The translations under genes and the position numbers were made by a program. The notes below the pieces were generated by a model that saw only the letters and a program-made list of their open reading frames with translations, did not search any database and was not told the DNA's origin. Shown piece by piece: positions 1 through 25,969 of a stretch of DNA of 25,969 nucleotides. The DNA lies in the IMG/VR virus record IMGVR_UViG_3300020042_001009, positions 1-25,969 of that record; one strand, written 5' to 3'. This stretch comes from a virus. Taxonomy: Duplodnaviria; Caudoviricetes. Within the stretch, counting starts at the first letter, position 1, and each line of letters begins with the position of its first letter.

Positions 1-1167
1 ATATGGGGTGAGCGTTTGCAGATCCATACCGCTCACAAACTGACAACCTCATCTGAAATCTTTTGGAAAATCGATGAGATCATCCAAGCCAATGAACAAC
101 TTCTGACTCGGTTTGTTAAAAAGTACGAAACCAAGGGAAGCCAAGAGATCCGACTCAATGACGGCACCCGTTACCTGGTAAGAGCCAATAACTCAGCTGC
201 TCGCGGTATCGCAGCGCCTGACACAATCCACCTGGACGAAGTTCGTGAGTACAAGGACGATGAAGTTTGGGCATCTTTGCGTTTTACGCAGATGGCTTCA
301 AAGAATCCCATGGCGATTATGTATTCCAATGCTGGAGACCAGCACTCAGTAATTTTGTTACGCATGAGAGAGCGAGGACTGGCAGCAGCTGCTGGATCTA
401 ATGATCCGATTGGTTGGTTTGAATGGTCAGCAGAGCCAGGATGTCCAATCGATGACATGAACGGATGGCAACAAGCCAACCCGAGCCTTGGACATACAAT
501 CCATATCGATAATCTTAAATCTGCAATGTCAGATGATGAGTCTATTATTCGCACAGAACTTTTGTGCCAATGGGTGAGCCAGATCAACCCTGCCATCAAT
601 CCGTCAAGTTGGACAGAGTGCGCGTCTGAGGGTACGCTCGCTTTGGATCGGGAGCAACCAACTTGGATGGCGATTGATCTATCACCAGATCGAAAAGCAG
701 CTGCGTTAGTTGCAGCGCAACGACTTGTTGGGGACAAGTTCTGCGTTGTATTACTGGAGACATATTCGAATCCAGTTTCGATTGACGATAAAGACCTTGC
801 AAACAGTATCGCTGTCTGGACGAAGCGTTACAGCGTGGAGACGGTCGCTTATAGTCGTCAAACGGCTGGCGCAGTTGCTTCTCGATTGATCCCAGCAGGA
901 ATTCCGACGACTGCCATCGATGGAGCAGTTTATGGACAAGCTTGTGATGAAATGTTGTCGGCTATTACCTCCCAGCGATTGGTCCACACAAATCAAGCCG
1001 AATTAAACAAGCAAGTTTTATCAGCTGTTAAATTGCCATTTAAAGATGGGGGCTGGTACCTTGGACGGAAAGCGTCAGGTGCCACAATATGCGCGACGGT
1101 TGGAATGGCGATGGTGTCTCACTTTGCGACACGACCTGATTCAGAAGTTGATATCGTGTTGGGTTGA
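1..1167 (+). CDS. terL: Terminase large subunit (5'-truncated by the window edge)
   Basis: Frame open from position 1; Walker B TIHLDEVRE, SNAG coupling motif, ANPSLG, nuclease-domain AIDLS; directly precedes portal. Confidence 0.92.
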   Translation: MWGERLQIHTAHKLTTSSEIFWKIDEIIQANEQLLTRFVKKYETKGSQEIRLNDGTRYLVRANNSAARGIAAPDTIHLDEVREYKDDEVWASLRFTQMASKNPMAIMYSNAGDQHSVILLRMRERGLAAAAGSNDPIGWFEWSAEPGCPIDDMNGWQQANPSLGHTIHIDNLKSAMSDDESIIRTELLCQWVSQINPAINPSSWTECASEGTLALDREQPTWMAIDLSPDRKAAALVAAQRLVGDKFCVVLLETYSNPVSIDDKDLANSIAVWTKRYSVETVAYSRQTAGAVASRLIPAGIPTTAIDGAVYGQACDEMLSAITSQRLVHTNQAELNKQVLSAVKLPFKDGGWYLGRKASGATICATVGMAMVSHFATRPDSEVDIVLG

Positions 1168-1188: not shown

Positions 1189-2283
1189 ATGGCACTTAGA
1201 GATTTATTCGCAAAAGCTCCTCAATCTGCTGGACTAACGGTTGATGCAGCTGCGACTCCGGCACCTTTTAACATCAGCCAAAACAGTTACTTTTATCCGT
1301 TGTCAAGTGCTACACGCGCACAAGCGATGGCAATTCCAACGATCGCGAGAGCTCGTAACATTTTATGCAGCCTTGCCACTTTGCCATTAGAGCAATACAT
1401 CAAGAGTACCGGCGCACATGTCGAACCCAATCGAGTAATAAACCAACCTGATTCGCGCGTTCCCGGTTCTTCTATTTACGCATTTATCGCTGAGGATTTA
1501 CTATTCCACGGCGTGGCTTATGGACAAGTTATGTCCATGTATGCAGATGGTCGAATCCAGGAATGGACACGCGTTGCAGTTGATCGCGTTACTTATCAAA
1601 CAAACGACACGCAAACAGAAATCATTGCTTACCGAGTAGATGGATCTGCCGTACCTTCAATGGGAGTTGGATCTCTTGTTGTGTTTAATGGTTTGGATGA
1701 AGGATTCTTATCTCGCGCTGGTCGCACAATTCGCGCAGCTATTGCATTAGAAAATGCGTCAGAAGCTTTTGCTAAAGAGCCAGTACCAATGATGGTACTA
1801 AAGTCAAATGGCACAAATCTTACTAGCGAGCGTATTGGCAAATTGCTTGAAGCCTGGCGCGTAGCCCGCAGCACTCGGAGCACAGCATTTCTGAATGCCG
1901 ATGTCGAATTGCAGGCTATGGGAATTGATCCAAACAAACTGCAACTAAATGAAGCTCGTCAATATGTGGCGCTTGAATTATGCCGCGCTATTGGCTTACC
2001 TGCTTACTTTGCAAGCGCTGAAACGACTTCAATGACTTATTCAAACGCTACTGCTGAGCGTCGTTCACTTATCGACTTTGGTGGTCGTAATTTACTTTTG
2101 GCAATCGAACAAAGGTTGTCAATGCCGGATTTTGTCGGTCAAGGCAATGAAATCCGTTACTCGCTAGACGAATACCTACGCGGTAATCCTTTGGAGCGCG
2201 CTCAGGTATATGAAATCCTGAATCGTATTGGCGCAATGAGCGTTCAAGAGATTCGCGAAGAAGAGGATCTAATCGACACATGA
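1189..2283 (+). CDS. Portal protein (HK97-like)
   Basis: ~365 aa between TerL and protease; DLLFHGVAYG, TYSN, MSVQEIREEEDL C-terminus. ATG 1189 preferred over GTG 1183. Confidence 0.9.
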   Translation: MALRDLFAKAPQSAGLTVDAAATPAPFNISQNSYFYPLSSATRAQAMAIPTIARARNILCSLATLPLEQYIKSTGAHVEPNRVINQPDSRVPGSSIYAFIAEDLLFHGVAYGQVMSMYADGRIQEWTRVAVDRVTYQTNDTQTEIIAYRVDGSAVPSMGVGSLVVFNGLDEGFLSRAGRTIRAAIALENASEAFAKEPVPMMVLKSNGTNLTSERIGKLLEAWRVARSTRSTAFLNADVELQAMGIDPNKLQLNEARQYVALELCRAIGLPAYFASAETTSMTYSNATAERRSLIDFGGRNLLLAIEQRLSMPDFVGQGNEIRYSLDEYLRGNPLERAQVYEILNRIGAMSVQEIREEEDLIDT

Positions 2284-3824
2284 AAATAACAATGCCAGTA
2301 ACAATTACTGCGTCAGATGCTGAATCACGCATCATCGCAGGTCGAATTGTGCAATGGGACGCAGAAGGTAATACATCTGCTGGTCGCACAAAGTTCCTTC
2401 CTAACTCAATCGAGTTTGGTAAGAACACAAAACTAGTTTTAGAACATAACCGCACAAAGCCTCTTGGCAAGTTGGTCGAATGGTCTCAAGATGATTCAGG
2501 TATTACTGCATCTTTTAAGATTGCAAAGACAACTGCCGGTAATGATGCTTTGGAAGAAGCTGCAACTGGACTTCGTTCAGATTTCAGCGTCGGCGTGGAA
2601 GTAGATGCGTGGGATAACAAAGATGGCGTTATGGCTATCAGCGCATCGAAATTAATTGAAGTTTCACTTGTAACCGATGGAGCAATCCCAGGTGCTGAAG
2701 TGGAAAAGGTCGCAGCGACCGAAGCACAAGGACAAGCTGCGAGCGAATCAACCCCGGAACCTCAGATCGAGGAACCTAAGACAGAAGGAGATGACCTAGT
2801 GTCAGAAACCGTTTCAGAAGCAGTATCAACCGAAGCGGTTGAAGCTGCTAAGGCAGAAGTCAAGGCGACTTCATATCCACTAAATTCACAAAAGGTTCGT
2901 AACCCAATCGTAGACAAAGCTTCATACTTGGAGCACTCAGTCCGCGCAGCACTTGGTGACGAAACATCAAAGTTGTATGTTGCAGCAGCTGCTGACACAA
3001 CAGACAACGCTGGACTAATCCCAACACGCCAACTAACAGAGATTGTTAATGGCGTATCAAACGGAGATCGCGGAGCAATCGATGCGATTTCACGCGGTAC
3101 ACTTCCGGACGCTGGAATGAGTTTCGAAATCCCTAAAATTACTCAGCCAGCCCTTGAGGGAGAAACTGCAGAAGGCGGAACACCTTTTGAGCAAGATGTA
3201 AACACATCTTTTATCTCAGTACCAGTTAAGAAGTTTGCTGGACAGCAGACGTTCTCAGTTGAATTACTAGATCGCTCAAACCCAGCATTCTTTACAGAGC
3301 TTGTACGCCAGATGGAGTTTGCTTACGCAAAGACAACTGACGCATTTGTTGCAACAGGAATGATCAACAATGGCGCTCTTAACGCAACTGCAAACGCTAA
3401 CTCAGCAACAGGCATCCTTGCTTACACATCATCAGCAGCAGCTGCTGTTTACGGTGCATCACTTGGCTTTGCTCGTTCATTGATCGTTTCACCTGATCAA
3501 TGGGGCAACATCATGGGATACAACGACTCAGGTCGTCCAATCTACAACGCAGCACAGCCACAAAACGCAGCTGGTGTAGCAACACCAACTTCACTTCGTG
3601 GAAATGTTGCAGGACTAGATCTTTATGTATCACGCAGCCTCTCAGGTACAGGCGATTCATCAATGATCGTTGTGAACCCAGAGTCTTACACATGGTATGA
3701 GTCACCACGCCTACAGCTGTCATCAAACCTAATCTCAACAGGTCAGGTTCAGGTTATGTACTACGGTTATGGAGCACTTGCAACAAAGATTGCAAACGGC
3801 GCTAACCGTTTTAACTTCACCTAA
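2280..3824 (+). CDS. Fused prohead protease / acidic linker / HK97-fold major capsid protein
   Basis: N-terminal protease motifs (LVLEHN..PLG, FSVG, LIEVSLV), low-complexity linker, then capsid motifs (FEIPKIT, VKKFAGQQTFSVELLDRS, GRPIY). Confidence 0.9.
   Translation: MKITMPVTITASDAESRIIAGRIVQWDAEGNTSAGRTKFLPNSIEFGKNTKLVLEHNRTKPLGKLVEWSQDDSGITASFKIAKTTAGNDALEEAATGLRSDFSVGVEVDAWDNKDGVMAISASKLIEVSLVTDGAIPGAEVEKVAATEAQGQAASESTPEPQIEEPKTEGDDLVSETVSEAVSTEAVEAAKAEVKATSYPLNSQKVRNPIVDKASYLEHSVRAALGDETSKLYVAAAADTTDNAGLIPTRQLTEIVNGVSNGDRGAIDAISRGTLPDAGMSFEIPKITQPALEGETAEGGTPFEQDVNTSFISVPVKKFAGQQTFSVELLDRSNPAFFTELVRQMEFAYAKTTDAFVATGMINNGALNATANANSATGILAYTSSAAAAVYGASLGFARSLIVSPDQWGNIMGYNDSGRPIYNAAQPQNAAGVATPTSLRGNVAGLDLYVSRSLSGTGDSSMIVVNPESYTWYESPRLQLSSNLISTGQVQVMYYGYGALATKIANGANRFNFT
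2783..2801 (+). promoter_or_regulatory. Internal in-frame RBS (AGAAGGAG) + GTG start for the capsid portion
   Basis: SD at 2783-2790, 8 nt before in-frame GTG 2799; GAAGGAGATGACCTAGTG identical in copy B. Confidence 0.6.
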
Positions 3825-3840
3825 GATAAACAACTAATCA

Positions 3841-3872
3841 TGGGGGGGCGGTTGCTCCCGATCGCTCCCCCA
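3841..3872 (+). promoter_or_regulatory. Conserved 12-bp RNA hairpin with anti-SD-like loop TGCTCCCG after the capsid gene
   Basis: TGGGGGGGCGGT / ATCGCTCCCCCA stem with two G.U pairs (favours the + strand RNA); no U-tract; identical in copy B while the flanking capsid end differs. Confidence 0.75.
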
Positions 3873-3891: not shown

Positions 3892-4461
3892 ATGCCAACA
3901 ATTATTACAGCGTCAGAGTTGCGATCAGTGCTTGGCGTTTCATCCGCTTTATACAGCGACGCATATTTAAATGAAATTATTGACACTAGCGAGGCTGTTA
4001 TCTTGCCTTTGCTTGTTACATATGCTTCACCAATAGCCAAGGTTTCGCTGACTGATAATGTCGCAACCTTTGAGACAGTAGGGATTCATGAGTTCACCGA
4101 AGGACAATCAGTTGTCATCGCTGGATGCGGATCTCCATTTAACGGCACTCGAACAGTCAATGCTGATCCAGATGCATACACATTTACAGCAAACATCACT
4201 AATGCCGATATCACCGAACGAAATGTCATCCCTAGCGGATCCGCAACACTTACAGGCGCTTCAACTTATGTTGGGGTCGCAGCTGTTGAATCGGCGATCA
4301 TGGTAGTTTCAGTTGAAGTATTCCAATCTCGTACTGCTCCTGGCGGTCAGATCGAAGGAGTAGATTTTGCGCCGTCGCCATATCGGATGGGGCGCAGCTT
4401 GTTTAATCGTTGCGTTGGTCTCTTGGGACCTTACATCGATGTTGAAACGATGGCTCAGTAA
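3892..4461 (+). CDS. Head-to-tail adaptor with inserted beta-rich domain
   Basis: Position after MCP; helical N-terminus (ITASELRSVLGV..D..L..II..SEAVI) and C-terminus (GLLGPY) flanking a beta-rich insert. Confidence 0.7.
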   Translation: MPTIITASELRSVLGVSSALYSDAYLNEIIDTSEAVILPLLVTYASPIAKVSLTDNVATFETVGIHEFTEGQSVVIAGCGSPFNGTRTVNADPDAYTFTANITNADITERNVIPSGSATLTGASTYVGVAAVESAIMVVSVEVFQSRTAPGGQIEGVDFAPSPYRMGRSLFNRCVGLLGPYIDVETMAQ

Positions 4462-4847
4462 TGCCGAGCACTATTCTTTCAGCAGTTCGTACTCCTCTTG
4501 CTACAGCTCTTGCTGGAGTCTCTGCAAACATATTTAGTTATGTTCCAGAGCAAGTTCCTGCACCTGCTGTTGTAGTCGTCCCGGATTCTCCTTACATGGA
4601 GTTTGACACAATCGGCAAGAGCACCTTTCGATGCAAACTAAATTACACAATAACCTGCTGCGTTGCGTACAACAGTAACCCAGCATCGCTTGATAACATC
4701 GAGCAACTCATAACGAGCGTTGTGGCGGTTATACCAGCTGGATACGAACTCCAGGTAGTTGATCGACCAACAGTTACAACAGTAGGCGCTAGCACCTTGC
4801 TGGTCGCAGATATACGGGTGTCCACTTGGTACACCCAAACAGCATAA
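4461..4847 (+). CDS. Tail terminator-like / neck protein
   Basis: 128 aa between adaptor and tail tube; PAVVVVP motif; synteny with small actinophages. Confidence 0.6.
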   Translation: MPSTILSAVRTPLATALAGVSANIFSYVPEQVPAPAVVVVPDSPYMEFDTIGKSTFRCKLNYTITCCVAYNSNPASLDNIEQLITSVVAVIPAGYELQVVDRPTVTTVGASTLLVADIRVSTWYTQTA

Positions 4848-4859
4848 GGAGAACCAATA

Positions 4860-5261
4860 ATGCCAACAACAGTCATTACGGGTCGCGACCTAGTCCTCAG
4901 CATCGCAACAGTAAATTACGATGCGCAGACAACTAGCGTCACACTCGTGAATTCACCAACCATCGATATTTACCAGACCCTCGATGGAAAAGCTTTTAAA
5001 CATACAGACGACAACTGGACTCTTAATGTAGAGCTACTTGCCGACTGGGGTGTTGCTTCATCACTATTCGAAGCAATGTGGACAGCAGCTGATACAGCAC
5101 CAAACACAACTCTTGCAGTATCTCTTACAGCTGCAACTGGCGCAGTATTTACTTGCAATGTTTTGCCTGTTTATCCAACAGTCGGTGGAACTGCTCCAGG
5201 AGCACAGACCGATACTTGGGCACTACAGGTAGTCGGAACACCAGCAGACACATTCAGCTAA
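4860..5261 (+). CDS. Major tail (tube) protein
   Basis: Strong SD TAAGGAG, Thr-rich beta protein immediately before the tail chaperone. Confidence 0.75.
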   Translation: MPTTVITGRDLVLSIATVNYDAQTTSVTLVNSPTIDIYQTLDGKAFKHTDDNWTLNVELLADWGVASSLFEAMWTAADTAPNTTLAVSLTAATGAVFTCNVLPVYPTVGGTAPGAQTDTWALQVVGTPADTFS

Positions 5262-5283
5262 AATCTAACAAACGGGAGCAAAG

Positions 5284-5559
5284 ATGAAACTACCAATCAC
5301 AATTACATATAACTCAGGCGACGAAGCAACTTACACGGCTCAACCTCCTGAGTGGGCAAAGTGGGAGAAGGCAACTGGCAACACGATTTCTCAAGCTAAT
5401 GACAAGATTGGCATTTGGGATCTTATGTTTCTGGCTTATAACGCTTACAAGCGAGAGAATGCTGGAAAGCCTGTTAAGTCTTACGAAATATGGTCTGACA
5501 CCGTTGCTAATGTAACGGTAGGAGACGATAGCCCAAAAGCCACCAGCCAGGAAGCATAA
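5284..5559 (+). CDS. Tail assembly chaperone (gpG-like)
   Basis: Follows tail tube; ends just after slippery CCCAAAA (5532-5538). Confidence 0.8.
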   Translation: MKLPITITYNSGDEATYTAQPPEWAKWEKATGNTISQANDKIGIWDLMFLAYNAYKRENAGKPVKSYEIWSDTVANVTVGDDSPKATSQEA

Positions 5560-5675
5560 GGCGGATCCTCGTATCTCTAGCAATAGAGACGGGGATACCG
5601 ATGCAATACTGGGATGATGCAGATGACATATTAACGGCGATAGATATATTGAAGGAGCGATCGGATGGCAGATGA
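5284..5675 (+). CDS. Tail assembly chaperone gpGT-like, -1 frameshift product
   Basis: C CCA AAA heptamer; -1 frame reads PKSHQPGSIRRILVSLAIETGIPMQYWDDADDILTAIDILKERSDGR*; changes vs copy B are mostly synonymous in this frame. Confidence 0.85.
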
Positions 5676-11515: not shown

Positions 11516-11598
11516 CAAAATAAACGTGTAATTGTCTGCCAGATGTGAGACCGTAATCCAGTAGCCAACAACGGTTACAAGAATCGGGAGCAAATCAA

Positions 11599-11748
11599 AT
11601 GGATCTACAAGTACCAGTAATAGTTTTACTGATGTTAGCTAATATCCTTTGGTTTATCGTTGGTTGGGGCAAAGGCTTCGAGGAAGGCAAGCGCGAGGGC
11701 TTGGTAGTTGGCAAGAACAGTCAGCGCGTGAGTGTTAATGCGCGCTAA
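11599..11748 (+). CDS. Small membrane protein, 49 aa (not in ORF track)
   Basis: MDLQVPVIVLLMLANILWFIVGWGKGFEEGKREG...; SD GGGAG 8 nt upstream; overlaps the next gene. Confidence 0.7.
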   Translation: MDLQVPVIVLLMLANILWFIVGWGKGFEEGKREGLVVGKNSQRVSVNAR

Positions 11749-14541: not shown

Positions 14542-14710
14542 TGGCTAAGCAATCAGCATTAAGAGATGATGGTAGTACTGCGTTATGGCGTAGGATACGA
14601 CAGAGAGTACTGACCAGAGATCAGCATACTTGTCAAAGGTGTGGACTAGAGGCTACTCACGTCGATCACATCATACCGAGACGCTTAGGAGGAGATGATT
14701 CAATGGATAA
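14541..14710 (+). pseudogene. HNH endonuclease, 3'-truncated at the junction
   Basis: WRRIRQRVLTRD..CQRC..HVDHIIP..GGDDSMD, then loses the expected NL..LCxxCN; continuation is antisense phosphoesterase DNA. Confidence 0.85.
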
Positions 14711-14777
14711 GTTCAGGCGTGAAGCGCTTGCCGTGTAATGTGCCTACTACAAAACCCATCTGCCAGTTCGCATAACC
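14705..14777. repeat. 73-bp exact inverted match to 11371-11443 at the junction
   Basis: Base-by-base comparison; divergence starts at 14778. Confidence 0.9.
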
Positions 14778-20889: not shown

Positions 20890-21270
20890 CCGATCGCTCC
20901 TTCAGTATTTCTATCGCGGTTAAAATGTCGTCTGCATCCTCCCAGTATTGCATCGGTATCCCCGTCTCTATTGCTAGATTAACGAGGATCCGCCTTATGC
21001 TTCCTGGTTGGTGGCTTTTGGGCTATCGTCTCCGACCGTTACATCAGCAACGGTTTCAGACCAAATGTCGTAAGACTTAACAGGTTTTCCAGCGTTCTCT
21101 CGCTTGTAAGCGTTATAAGCCAGAAACATAAGATCCCAAATGCCAATCTTGTCATTAGCCTGAGAAATTGTGTTACCAGTTGCCTTCTCCCACTTCGCCC
21201 ACTCAGGAGGCTGAGCAACATAAGTTGCTGAGTCGCCTGCGTTATATGTAATTGTGATTGGTAGTTTCAT
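20879..21270 (-). CDS. Tail assembly chaperone gpGT-like, -1 frameshift product (copy B)
   Basis: CCCAAAA at 21016-21022 (minus); -1 frame PKSHQPGSIRRILVNLAIETGIPMQYWEDADDILTAIEILKERSDGR*. Confidence 0.85.
20995..21270 (-). CDS. Tail assembly chaperone gpG-like (copy B)
   Basis: Homolog of 5284-5559. Confidence 0.8.
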   Translation of the reverse strand: MKLPITITYNAGDSATYVAQPPEWAKWEKATGNTISQANDKIGIWDLMFLAYNAYKRENAGKPVKSYDIWSETVADVTVGDDSPKATNQEA

Positions 21271-21291
21271 CTGTGCTCCCGTTGTTAGATA

Positions 21292-25403: not shown

Positions 25404-25969
25404 TCAACCCAACACGATATCCACTTCTGTATCTGGTCGTGTCGCAAAGTGACTAACCATTGCCATTCCAACTGTGGCGCAAATTGTGGCTGCGCTGGCT
25501 TTTCGTCCAAGGTACCAACCGCCATCTTTAAAAGGCAGCTTAACCGCCGATAGCACTTGCTTATTTAACTCGGCTTGATCGCCATGAACTAAACGCTGGG
25601 AGGTAATAGCCGACAACATTTCATCGCAGGCTTGCCCGTAGATCGCTCCATCGATGGCAGTTGTTGAAATGCCGGCAGGAGCCAATCGAGAAGCAACTGC
25701 GCCAGCCGTCTGACGACTATAAGCGACCGTCTCCACGCTATATCGCTTAGTCCAAACGGCGATACTGTTCGCTAGGTCTTTATCGTCAATCGATACTGGA
25801 TTCGAATACGTTTCCAGTAATACAACGCAGAACTTGTCCCCAACAAGCCGTTGCGCTGCAACTAACGCAGCTGCTTTTCGATCTGGTGATAGATCAATCG
25901 CCATCCAAGTTGGTTGCTCCCGATCCAAAGCGAGCGTACCCTCAGACGCGCACTCTGTCCAACTTGACG
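25404..25969 (-). CDS. terL: Terminase large subunit C-terminal half (copy B, truncated by the window edge)
   Basis: Homolog of 602-1167. Confidence 0.9.
   Translation of the reverse strand, partial: SSWTECASEGTLALDREQPTWMAIDLSPDRKAAALVAAQRLVGDKFCVVLLETYSNPVSIDDKDLANSIAVWTKRYSVETVAYSRQTAGAVASRLAPAGISTTAIDGAIYGQACDEMLSAITSQRLVHGDQAELNKQVLSAVKLPFKDGGWYLGRKASAATICATVGMAMVSHFATRPDTEVDIVLG
25849..25969. repeat. 121-bp exact inverted match to 602-722 at the window end
   Basis: Base-by-base comparison; first mismatch at 723 / 25848. Confidence 0.9.

Follow-up and report, generated by a model that had tools for sequence, protein, structure and literature searches.

A conserved hairpin behind the capsid gene of freshwater miniphages has a loop that covaries with the start of the tail assembly chaperone gene

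What does a short hairpin directly behind the capsid gene of a small freshwater phage do, and why is its loop complementary to sites at the starts of other genes? The window analysed here, a stretch of 25,969 nucleotides of viral DNA (IMG/VR record IMGVR_UViG_3300020042_001009), holds two related ~15-kb freshwater phage genomes, A and B, which lie head to head with a junction near 14.7 kb. The complementarity between the arms of the window is 72-91%, and the head-to-head junction at 14700-14740 is probably an assembly or library chimera. In genome A, terL, the portal gene and the protease-major capsid fusion gene are followed by three head-tail and tail genes, a 91-aa gene, a 154-aa gene and the tape measure gene, and then by tail and lysis genes, a metallophosphoesterase gene and finally the early genes and an HNH gene. 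At the junction the HNH gene of A and the phosphoesterase gene of B are both cut and overlap by ~36 nt.

The hairpin comes after the stop codon of the protease-major capsid fusion gene, the nearest cultured homologues of which are from ~15-kb actinophages (Table 1). The block enclosed between the hairpin and the start of the chaperone gene consists of the putative adaptor, tail-terminator-like and major tail genes (3892..5261, + strand). The window's own major tail protein gave no match where its counterpart in a relative (L088) matched cultured actinophages. Three other relatives (L490, L492 and L500) carry a conserved ORF of ~30 aa between the tail-terminator-like and major tail genes, ~1040-1150 nt past the capsid stop; this ORF is typical of one large clade and is lacking in the clade of the window. 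We infer an actinobacterial host. A genome-bin search for the host returned eight matches in mixed taxa, two of them in one Nanopelagicaceae MAG, and no host was assigned.

Table 1. Positions of the features discussed. Coordinates refer to the window unless a locus is named.
Feature	Position	Strand	Basis
Clade-restricted 14-nt site inside terL (codons D-R-E-Q-P)	646..659	+	Match counts; codon invariance
Protease-major capsid fusion gene	2280..3824	+	PHROGs matches (major head protein, maturation protease); capsid-protease fusion in the annotation of cultured homologues
Post-capsid RNA hairpin with a strong lower stem and a weak cap rich in G.U, lacking a U-tract	3841..3872	+	Fold, stem covariation, pair types
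Apex, putative guide segment complementary to the targets	3852..3860	+	Cheap opening; covaries with chaperone start
Putative adaptor	3892-4461	+	ORF; adaptor label from position
Tail-terminator-like gene	4461-4847	+	ORF; PHROG minor tail match
Major tail protein	4860-5261	+	ORF; equivalent-position protein of relative L088 matches cultured actinophage major tail proteins
Principal candidate target, ribosome-binding region of tail assembly chaperone	5273..5281	+	Match in both chaperone families; duplex energy
Tail assembly chaperone (G form)	5284..5559	+	Gene position; -1 slippery heptamer with extension
Slippery heptamer (5532-5538) and -1 frame extension, predicted GT form	5532..5675	+	Three-frame translation; conservation
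Match before the 154-aa gene, judged incidental	5654..5664	+	An SD within the GT coding frame; its complement is the 3' arm of the stem
Secondary, facultative candidate target, start region of first early gene (11599-11748)	11583..11593	+	Matches of at least 7 nt
Chaperone-start target, second genome, 8 nt	21274..21281	-	Sequence match
Identical hairpin, second genome	22681..22712	-	Sequence match of the 32-mer
terL site, second genome	25912..25925	-	Sequence match
Local hairpin regions, Rhodococcus phages	L616:5896-6002 (Shagrat), L617:5902-6020 (REQ1), L618:3377-3501 (Madraxi), L619:3382-3501 (Jflix2)		

A preliminary description of the window had reported that the 32-nt hairpin is identical in both genomes, that its G.U pairs favour the mRNA strand and that it has no U-tract, and all three observations were borne out. 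On the + strand the fold is a CUCC tetraloop on a 14-bp stem that includes three G.U pairs (-24.9 kcal/mol, z -4.0), far better than on the - strand (-15.1 kcal/mol, z -1.2). The identity of the two copies is weak evidence by itself, because the hairpin opens a block (I2) that is 86% identical between the genomes. Two tandem GCTCCC units had also been described, one of them as exposed in the loop. Both units are there, with CUCC alone unpaired: the first unit includes the closing pair and is not wholly exposed, while the second sits in the 3' stem arm and is variable among relatives. The cap is weak, and opening the apex costs 3.1 kcal/mol for the 8 apical bases and 5.6 kcal/mol for ten. The hairpin lies 16-20 nt past the capsid stop, and the donor is intergenic.

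In an alignment of 17 stem sequences, 88.9% of cells pair and 38 two-sided changes are seen. The covariation score of the stem was 0.82, compared with 0.28 after shuffling (0/500 shuffles) and at most 0.24 when the alignment was slid. Moreover, the lower stem is paired in 62-73 of 74 distinct CUCCC-type hairpins at each position, with many pair types, and positions 3-4 from the loop are often open (55/74 and 57/74). Judged by these paired changes, the post-capsid hairpin is a conserved RNA structure. Rfam covariance models, suggested earlier as a check, gave nothing at the hairpin up to an E-value of 5. With regard to intrinsic termination, the GC-rich stem is present and the U-tract absent, and the hairpin was not called by a promoter/terminator scan of the window, which itself performed at chance level. 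At least five T within the next 8 nt were found in 6/582 hairpin loci, and efficient intrinsic termination is therefore doubtful.

The reverse-complement matches to the loop and 3' arm listed in the preliminary description were reproduced. In genome A these are the site in terL (14 nt), the sites at the first early gene and before the 154-aa gene, there called gp10-like (11 nt each), and the site at the chaperone start (9 nt); in genome B they lie at 25912-25925, 20890-20900 and 21274-21281 (8 nt). The 9-mer CGGGAGCAA does occur four times in genome A, as had been counted, with three of the occurrences being sites and the fourth the hairpin itself. A random 14-nt apex with a central CTCC yielded at least three sites of at least 9 nt in genome A in 207/20000 trials, and one with a central GCTCCC did so in 450/20000. 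The pattern within one genome is only modestly unusual (1-2% significance), and for this reason the comparative tests carry the weight.

Searches with capsid queries returned 608 loci, or 610 with the two window halves. A post-capsid hairpin was found in 586/610, and 427 of these loci also extend past the major tail gene. Since the set includes near-identical genomes and repeated contigs, counts were taken on distinct apex/target pairs. The apex was defined blind, as the 14 nt around the loop centre. The target window ran from -20 to +35 relative to the start of the gene that follows the major tail gene; it was widened to +35 after the data had been seen, and background windows were given equal width. 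Mis-picked hairpins (L396, L452 and L462), hairpins weaker than -11 kcal/mol and loci without the full target window were dropped before counting. The GCCCCU clade was counted only in the analyses of apex/target pairs and classes, its chaperone having been mis-framed by the gene caller in the survey of called starts. A first tree, built from the capsid C-terminus, was incongruent with loop class and placed the two genomes of the window apart, and so a tree of the adaptor and major tail proteins was used.

The gene whose start is matched lies between the major tail and tape measure genes. A -1 slippery site followed by an extension is the hallmark of the G/GT tail assembly chaperones of lambda, and 340/346 distinct CDSs of this gene have a -1 slippery heptamer that is followed by at least 35 aa of extension. 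It had no Pfam or PHROG match; in the Atlas, the closest cluster with a name is a phage chaperone at a score of 0.79, which counts as no more than a lead. Position and frameshift signal together mark the gene as a tail assembly chaperone.

The predicted duplex between the loop and the chaperone start has an energy of -17.2 kcal/mol, and opening the site costs 1.6 kcal/mol. Matches of at least 7 nt are found at the chaperone start in 104/106 and 36/47 members of two chaperone families. Among 3350 called starts (175 loci of at least 9 kb), only the chaperone and first-early families stand out at this threshold, with 0-4% of starts in large structural gene families matching the loop. In the distinct pairs, a Watson-Crick run of at least 8 nt joins the apex to its cognate chaperone start in 280/329 cases, and one of at least 7 nt in 293, compared with 0.53% and 2.2% of 56626 background windows of the same width. 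The orientation of the match at the chaperone start is pairable in 280 cases and opposite in 0.

The preliminary description had proposed the chaperone RBS as a target and had named loop variation without compensating RBS changes as a refutation. This test went in favour of the proposal, since across the family loop and start covary, the start being altered where relatives differ in the loop. When the pairs were sorted into 15 loop classes, the mean match was 8.07 for cognate and 4.61 for non-cognate combinations, and the diagonal was the row maximum in 11/15 classes. Loop class changes at least 22 times on the adaptor and major tail tree. Of 17 path-independent contrasts between differing classes, 12 favour the cognate and 2 the swapped partner, with 3 ties (p=0.0065). 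Loop/target pairs include GCTCCCG/CGGGAGC, GCTCCCA/TGGGAGC (L340), TTCTCCCGA/TCGGGAGAA, TCCTCCCGA/TCGGGAGGA and GCCCCTGT/ACAGGGGC, and the match in L352 reaches 12 nt. Single-base compensations are seen in L340 and L494, that in L494 at a synonymous Ala codon.

A closer inspection of the targets reveals that they range from -15 to +32 of the chaperone start. The loop GAGGCTCG has its target CGAGCCTC directly past the AUG, the loop GAAGCCTT has its target AAGGCTTC within codons 8-10 of the chaperone gene, and the pair GATGCCTT/AAGGCATC involves a synonymous change. None of these three loops is an anti-SD sequence, and their targets lie in coding sequence at about +5 and +22; the match is therefore not an SD artefact. 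All distinct CDSs of the GAAGCCTT clade (49/49) share the same Lys and Ala codons at the target; 2/35 of the other codons reach a level of 0.97, and other conserved codons average 0.63. Genomes with a separate canonical SD keep the tag between SD and AUG. Variation in the host anti-SD was considered as a cause and rejected, as other genes there use ordinary AAGGAG-type SDs without a match to the loop. As neither chance nor SD mimicry nor a protein operator passes all tests, we consider RNA-RNA pairing at the chaperone start highly probable from the comparative record.

The match is not uniform. G.U replaces A-U in L070, L427 and the RBS of one clade, and mismatches other than G.U are seen in L083, L086, L366 and L418. 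The UGCCCUU class (7 pairs) reaches 7-8 nt only with G.U, and in the AGCCCUC class (21 pairs) the match at the chaperone start is merely 4-6 nt. The latter clade (L110, L113, L122, L129 and relatives) retains a strong hairpin and a conserved loop, and some of its members have a 6-nt match in the loop of an early 5' hairpin instead.

At the first early gene, matches of at least 7 nt were found in 24/35 family members with called starts. Among independently called first early starts the figure was 30/75, compared with 1.0-2.3% of other starts; by loop class, matches were seen in 23/40, 3/5 and 3/13 (the last two being non-SD loops) and in 0/10 and 1/7 elsewhere. The RBS of this gene, one of the targets suggested earlier, is thus plausible, albeit a weaker and facultative one. 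In the window, the region 11540-11600 resembles an extended -10 promoter (TGn ahead of nAnnnT) that leads into a short 5' hairpin, with the tagged RBS behind it, and a similar arrangement can be recognised by eye in several relatives. A further early gene family (family 31, e.g. L095:621-815) has matches of at least 7 nt at 10/27 starts, all in genomes with CUCCC loops.

The suggestion that the site in terL is also a target did not hold across the family, where a match of at least 8 nt is present in 2/195 loci outside the window's terL clade. Within that clade it stands as a candidate, with 13-14 nt matched in 33/33 loci. Four codons of the site are synonymously invariant in 29 sequences, which is true of 5/182 four-codon windows (three regions). 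The site may be a clade-specific target or another constrained element. Two other stretches of terL, at 592-610 and about 94-105 of the window, are also synonymously invariant in 29 relatives and are candidate RNA or DNA signals. The RBS of the gp10-like gene, also put forward as a target, appears incidental: at least 7 nt were matched in 4/111 cases, the site pairs with the variable stem arm and opening it costs 10.0 kcal/mol. Site and matching arm co-occur in 9/196 loci, with 10/19 site-bearing loci lacking the arm and 23/32 arm-bearing loci lacking the site. Two further sets of matches of at least 7 nt in the GAAGCCUU clade were rejected. Those at a small ORF before the major tail gene do not follow the loop change in L494/L495, and at the 5' end of the capsid gene the site is variable.

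In cultured phages the search gave a mixed picture. Rhodococcus phages REQ1, Madraxi, Jflix2 and Shagrat were reached through homologues of the major tail protein. In all four (4/4 examined) the gap directly before the chaperone gene contains a hairpin, and 7-8 nt of its loop find their match between SD and AUG, with two sequence types represented; the look was post hoc, and the four represent two independent cases. The post-capsid hairpins of the same phages match the chaperone start by 4-6 nt. The gaps of these four phages also hold partial extra copies of the tag, and Madraxi has an additional 9-nt match at the start of gene 15. The device was absent from six cultured small actinophages (Arthrobacter phages Decurro, Kels, MooKitty and Atraxa, Gordonia phage Schiebs and Curtobacterium phage Penoan), 4/6 of which have no gap past the capsid gene; MooKitty and Atraxa have a hairpin with a match of 3-4 nt. 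The match was 6 nt in phiPsal1 and 4-5 nt for the post-capsid hairpins of phiSASD1, Yara and Wentworth, and no usable hairpin was found in Dubu or P1312. Another gap in Yara has a weak fold (-8.7) with a 7-nt match, which was left out of the count. In all, the four Streptomyces phages and the one Thermobifida phage examined gave nothing convincing.

The simplest reading, which we would put at roughly 0.55, is that the apex pairs with the chaperone start and damps translation of the chaperone (G and GT), both at initiation and through coupling from the tube gene. The apex would bind an 8-12-nt single-stranded site at the start of the chaperone gene, 1.4-1.6 kb downstream. It might do so in cis, on a read-through late message with the adaptor-to-major-tail block looped out, or in trans, with abundant capsid messages whose end would be the hairpin. 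Initiation would be hindered by the duplex, as would re-initiation by ribosomes that come off the heavily translated major tail gene, and compared with capsid and tube the chaperone and the downstream tail genes would yield less. In genomes with a tagged first early gene, build-up of the late loop would turn down the early message as well. Across clades, most targets overlap the SD or abut the AUG. Pairing usually blocks initiation within about five codons; targets at +19 to +32 lie beyond this, and an effect through decay or structure would suit them no less than occlusion. A duplex of 8-9 bp may form in few molecules at a time, be it across 1.4 kb of translated RNA or in trans with no chaperone assisting.

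Two other readings accept the pairing and differ in its effect, and the targets at about +22 appear to fit either of them at least as well as damping, being far for occlusion. The pairing could act on RNA processing or stability, which we consider unlikely. The hairpin would then cap the 5' end of a processed adaptor-to-major-tail message and the loop would dock just beyond the major tail stop, protecting the 3' end or directing cleavage, with tube protein kept high and downstream tail RNA decaying. No hairpin follows the major tail gene in these phages (the spacer is about 20 nt), and the scarcity of T-runs noted above would also suit this role. Moreover, the core of intergenic targets is never less than 11 nt from the major tail stop, and 11 nt past a stop is outside the footprint of a terminating ribosome. 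A spacing test with either the start or the upstream stop as anchor (sd 1.97 vs 2.03) does not separate them. However, the early-gene tag sits at a start codon with a variable distance to any upstream stop, and the Rhodococcus version likewise lands between SD and AUG. Activation is more improbable still. Here the capsid stop region with its terminating ribosomes would be brought near the chaperone start, or the start held unfolded, tying chaperone synthesis positively to capsid translation. The donor does follow closely on the stop of what is presumably the most translated gene, targets in the coding region would leave SD and AUG free, and the lambda G chaperone is needed in quantity; yet the target overlaps the SD or abuts the AUG in most clades, and the chaperone start is already open at a cost of 1.6 kcal/mol.

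That there is no pairing at all, the pattern being the product of an SD-like loop and the shared ancestry of a linked block, is largely refuted by the comparative data. The loop core in the window's clade is complementary to the SD core, hairpin and chaperone are inherited together, and one genome alone gives no better than 1-2% significance. Against this stand the non-SD loops with targets in coding sequence, the frozen synonymous codons, the tree-independent contrasts and the other SD-bearing starts that lack a match. The lowest odds go to a DNA operator, bound in either orientation by a phage Zn-finger or other protein, the Zn-finger case being the alternative that the preliminary description had offered. 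A tag does lie by the early promoter region, and the genes include some for small Cys-rich proteins. However, the whole motif is exchanged from clade to clade and single bases in it change in compensation, its inverted copy is always in the apex of a covarying RNA stem, and the 280 to 0 orientation at the chaperone start speaks against a site read both ways. The two Zn proteins of the window are found in only 2/11 and 5/11 relatives whose early region is largely covered. Taken together, these comparisons point to a strongly covarying long-range RNA pairing element that appears to be real, a variant of RNA pairing controls already known, with damping of the chaperone as its predicted effect.

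Tailed phages are known to carry an intrinsic terminator after the capsid gene, e.g. phiPsal1. As in such terminators, a strong GC stem stands right after the capsid stop; unlike them, the hairpin lacks a U-tract and its apex is apparently under sequence selection tied to a distant site. As in loop-seed sRNAs, an accessible loop is complementary to a target start region, with covariation. Portions of several published accounts describe systems that bear comparison. Freshwater 'miniphages' of ~15 kb have been described, and these and the small actinophages with a capsid-protease fusion are alike in genome size, gene order and the fusion itself (PMC6802176). In the icaR mRNA of Staphylococcus aureus, a pyrimidine-rich motif in the 3'-UTR pairs with the ribosome-binding region and blocks initiation (PMC3868564). 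The likeness is a short motif beyond the coding sequence that is complementary to the ribosome-binding region of an mRNA. In icaR, however, the target is the upstream SD of the same gene and the duplex is a substrate of RNase III (PMC3868564), whereas the phage donor is a hairpin apex, the target belongs to a gene four cistrons further downstream, and the motif is not bound to the SD. Capsid-gene starts, the equivalent of an icaR-type target, matched the loop by at least 7 nt in 0/165 cases. The 6C sRNA of high-GC Gram-positive bacteria binds mRNA targets through C-rich loops without Hfq or ProQ (PMC6486639), so loop pairing should be chemically feasible in the host group presumed here. Whereas 6C is a host sRNA in its own right, with many targets (PMC6486639), the phage element is one intercistronic hairpin with one or two targets of its own, and some of its loop classes are not C-rich. 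In MS2, the long-distance contact named after Min Jou shuts a downstream start by 7-nt long-range pairing; its donor sits within the coat cistron, where ribosomes open it as they translate (PMC11339067), whereas the donor here is an untranslated intergenic loop of a DNA phage, with a span of 1.4-1.6 kb.

Start associated sequences (SAS) of Cluster K mycobacteriophages, a fixed 13-mer of unknown function present in 11-19 copies before non-structural genes, offer a suggestive parallel (PMC3203893). Four Cluster K genomes have one SAS copy in the opposite orientation (PMC3203893). Both are conserved, oriented tags, beyond a plain SD, at selected start codons; the tags described here differ in numbering 1-3, in including a tail gene and in having a sequence that differs by clade and changes with a complementary loop. 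The first part of a review of phage sRNAs names nothing alike (PMC12197685). The first cultured acI phages have 39-kb genomes of another kind, according to the portion of that report used here (PMC10202952). Three motifs were absent from six supplements of a survey of viral structured RNAs, and the bare hairpin may be catalogued in its files 1, 2 and 4 (PMC10690425). No description of this hairpin/loop-target element was found in the literature searched, which was mostly non-subscription.

It is possible, though we advance it tentatively, that these phages exemplify a recurrent and undescribed class of RNA device, in which a tailed-phage hairpin loop aimed at the tail-chaperone start sets virion stoichiometry. 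In freshwater miniphages it would have moved behind the capsid gene, and the capsid message would be a protein-free regulator that meters tail assembly and, via the first-early and terL tags, sets the timing of the early-to-late switch where the genome is too small to include a repressor. The ratios of late-operon products, with hundreds of capsid and tube subunits next to controlled amounts of chaperones and minor parts, are usually ascribed to SD strength, terminators and frameshifting. Conserved pairing of a loop with a start would add an RNA-RNA layer to these, the evidence for it here being compensatory evolution in an abundant family of uncultured phages. The natural loop/target variants provide ready-made swap experiments, and the cultured Rhodococcus phages with the local version make the idea testable. 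For the unexplained start-associated tags of actinophages, a hypothesis follows, namely that their complement may sit in a hairpin loop. Lastly, the spacer between the major tail and chaperone genes of L079, L151 and L194 contains a tandem, partly degenerate second copy of the tag ahead of the full one.
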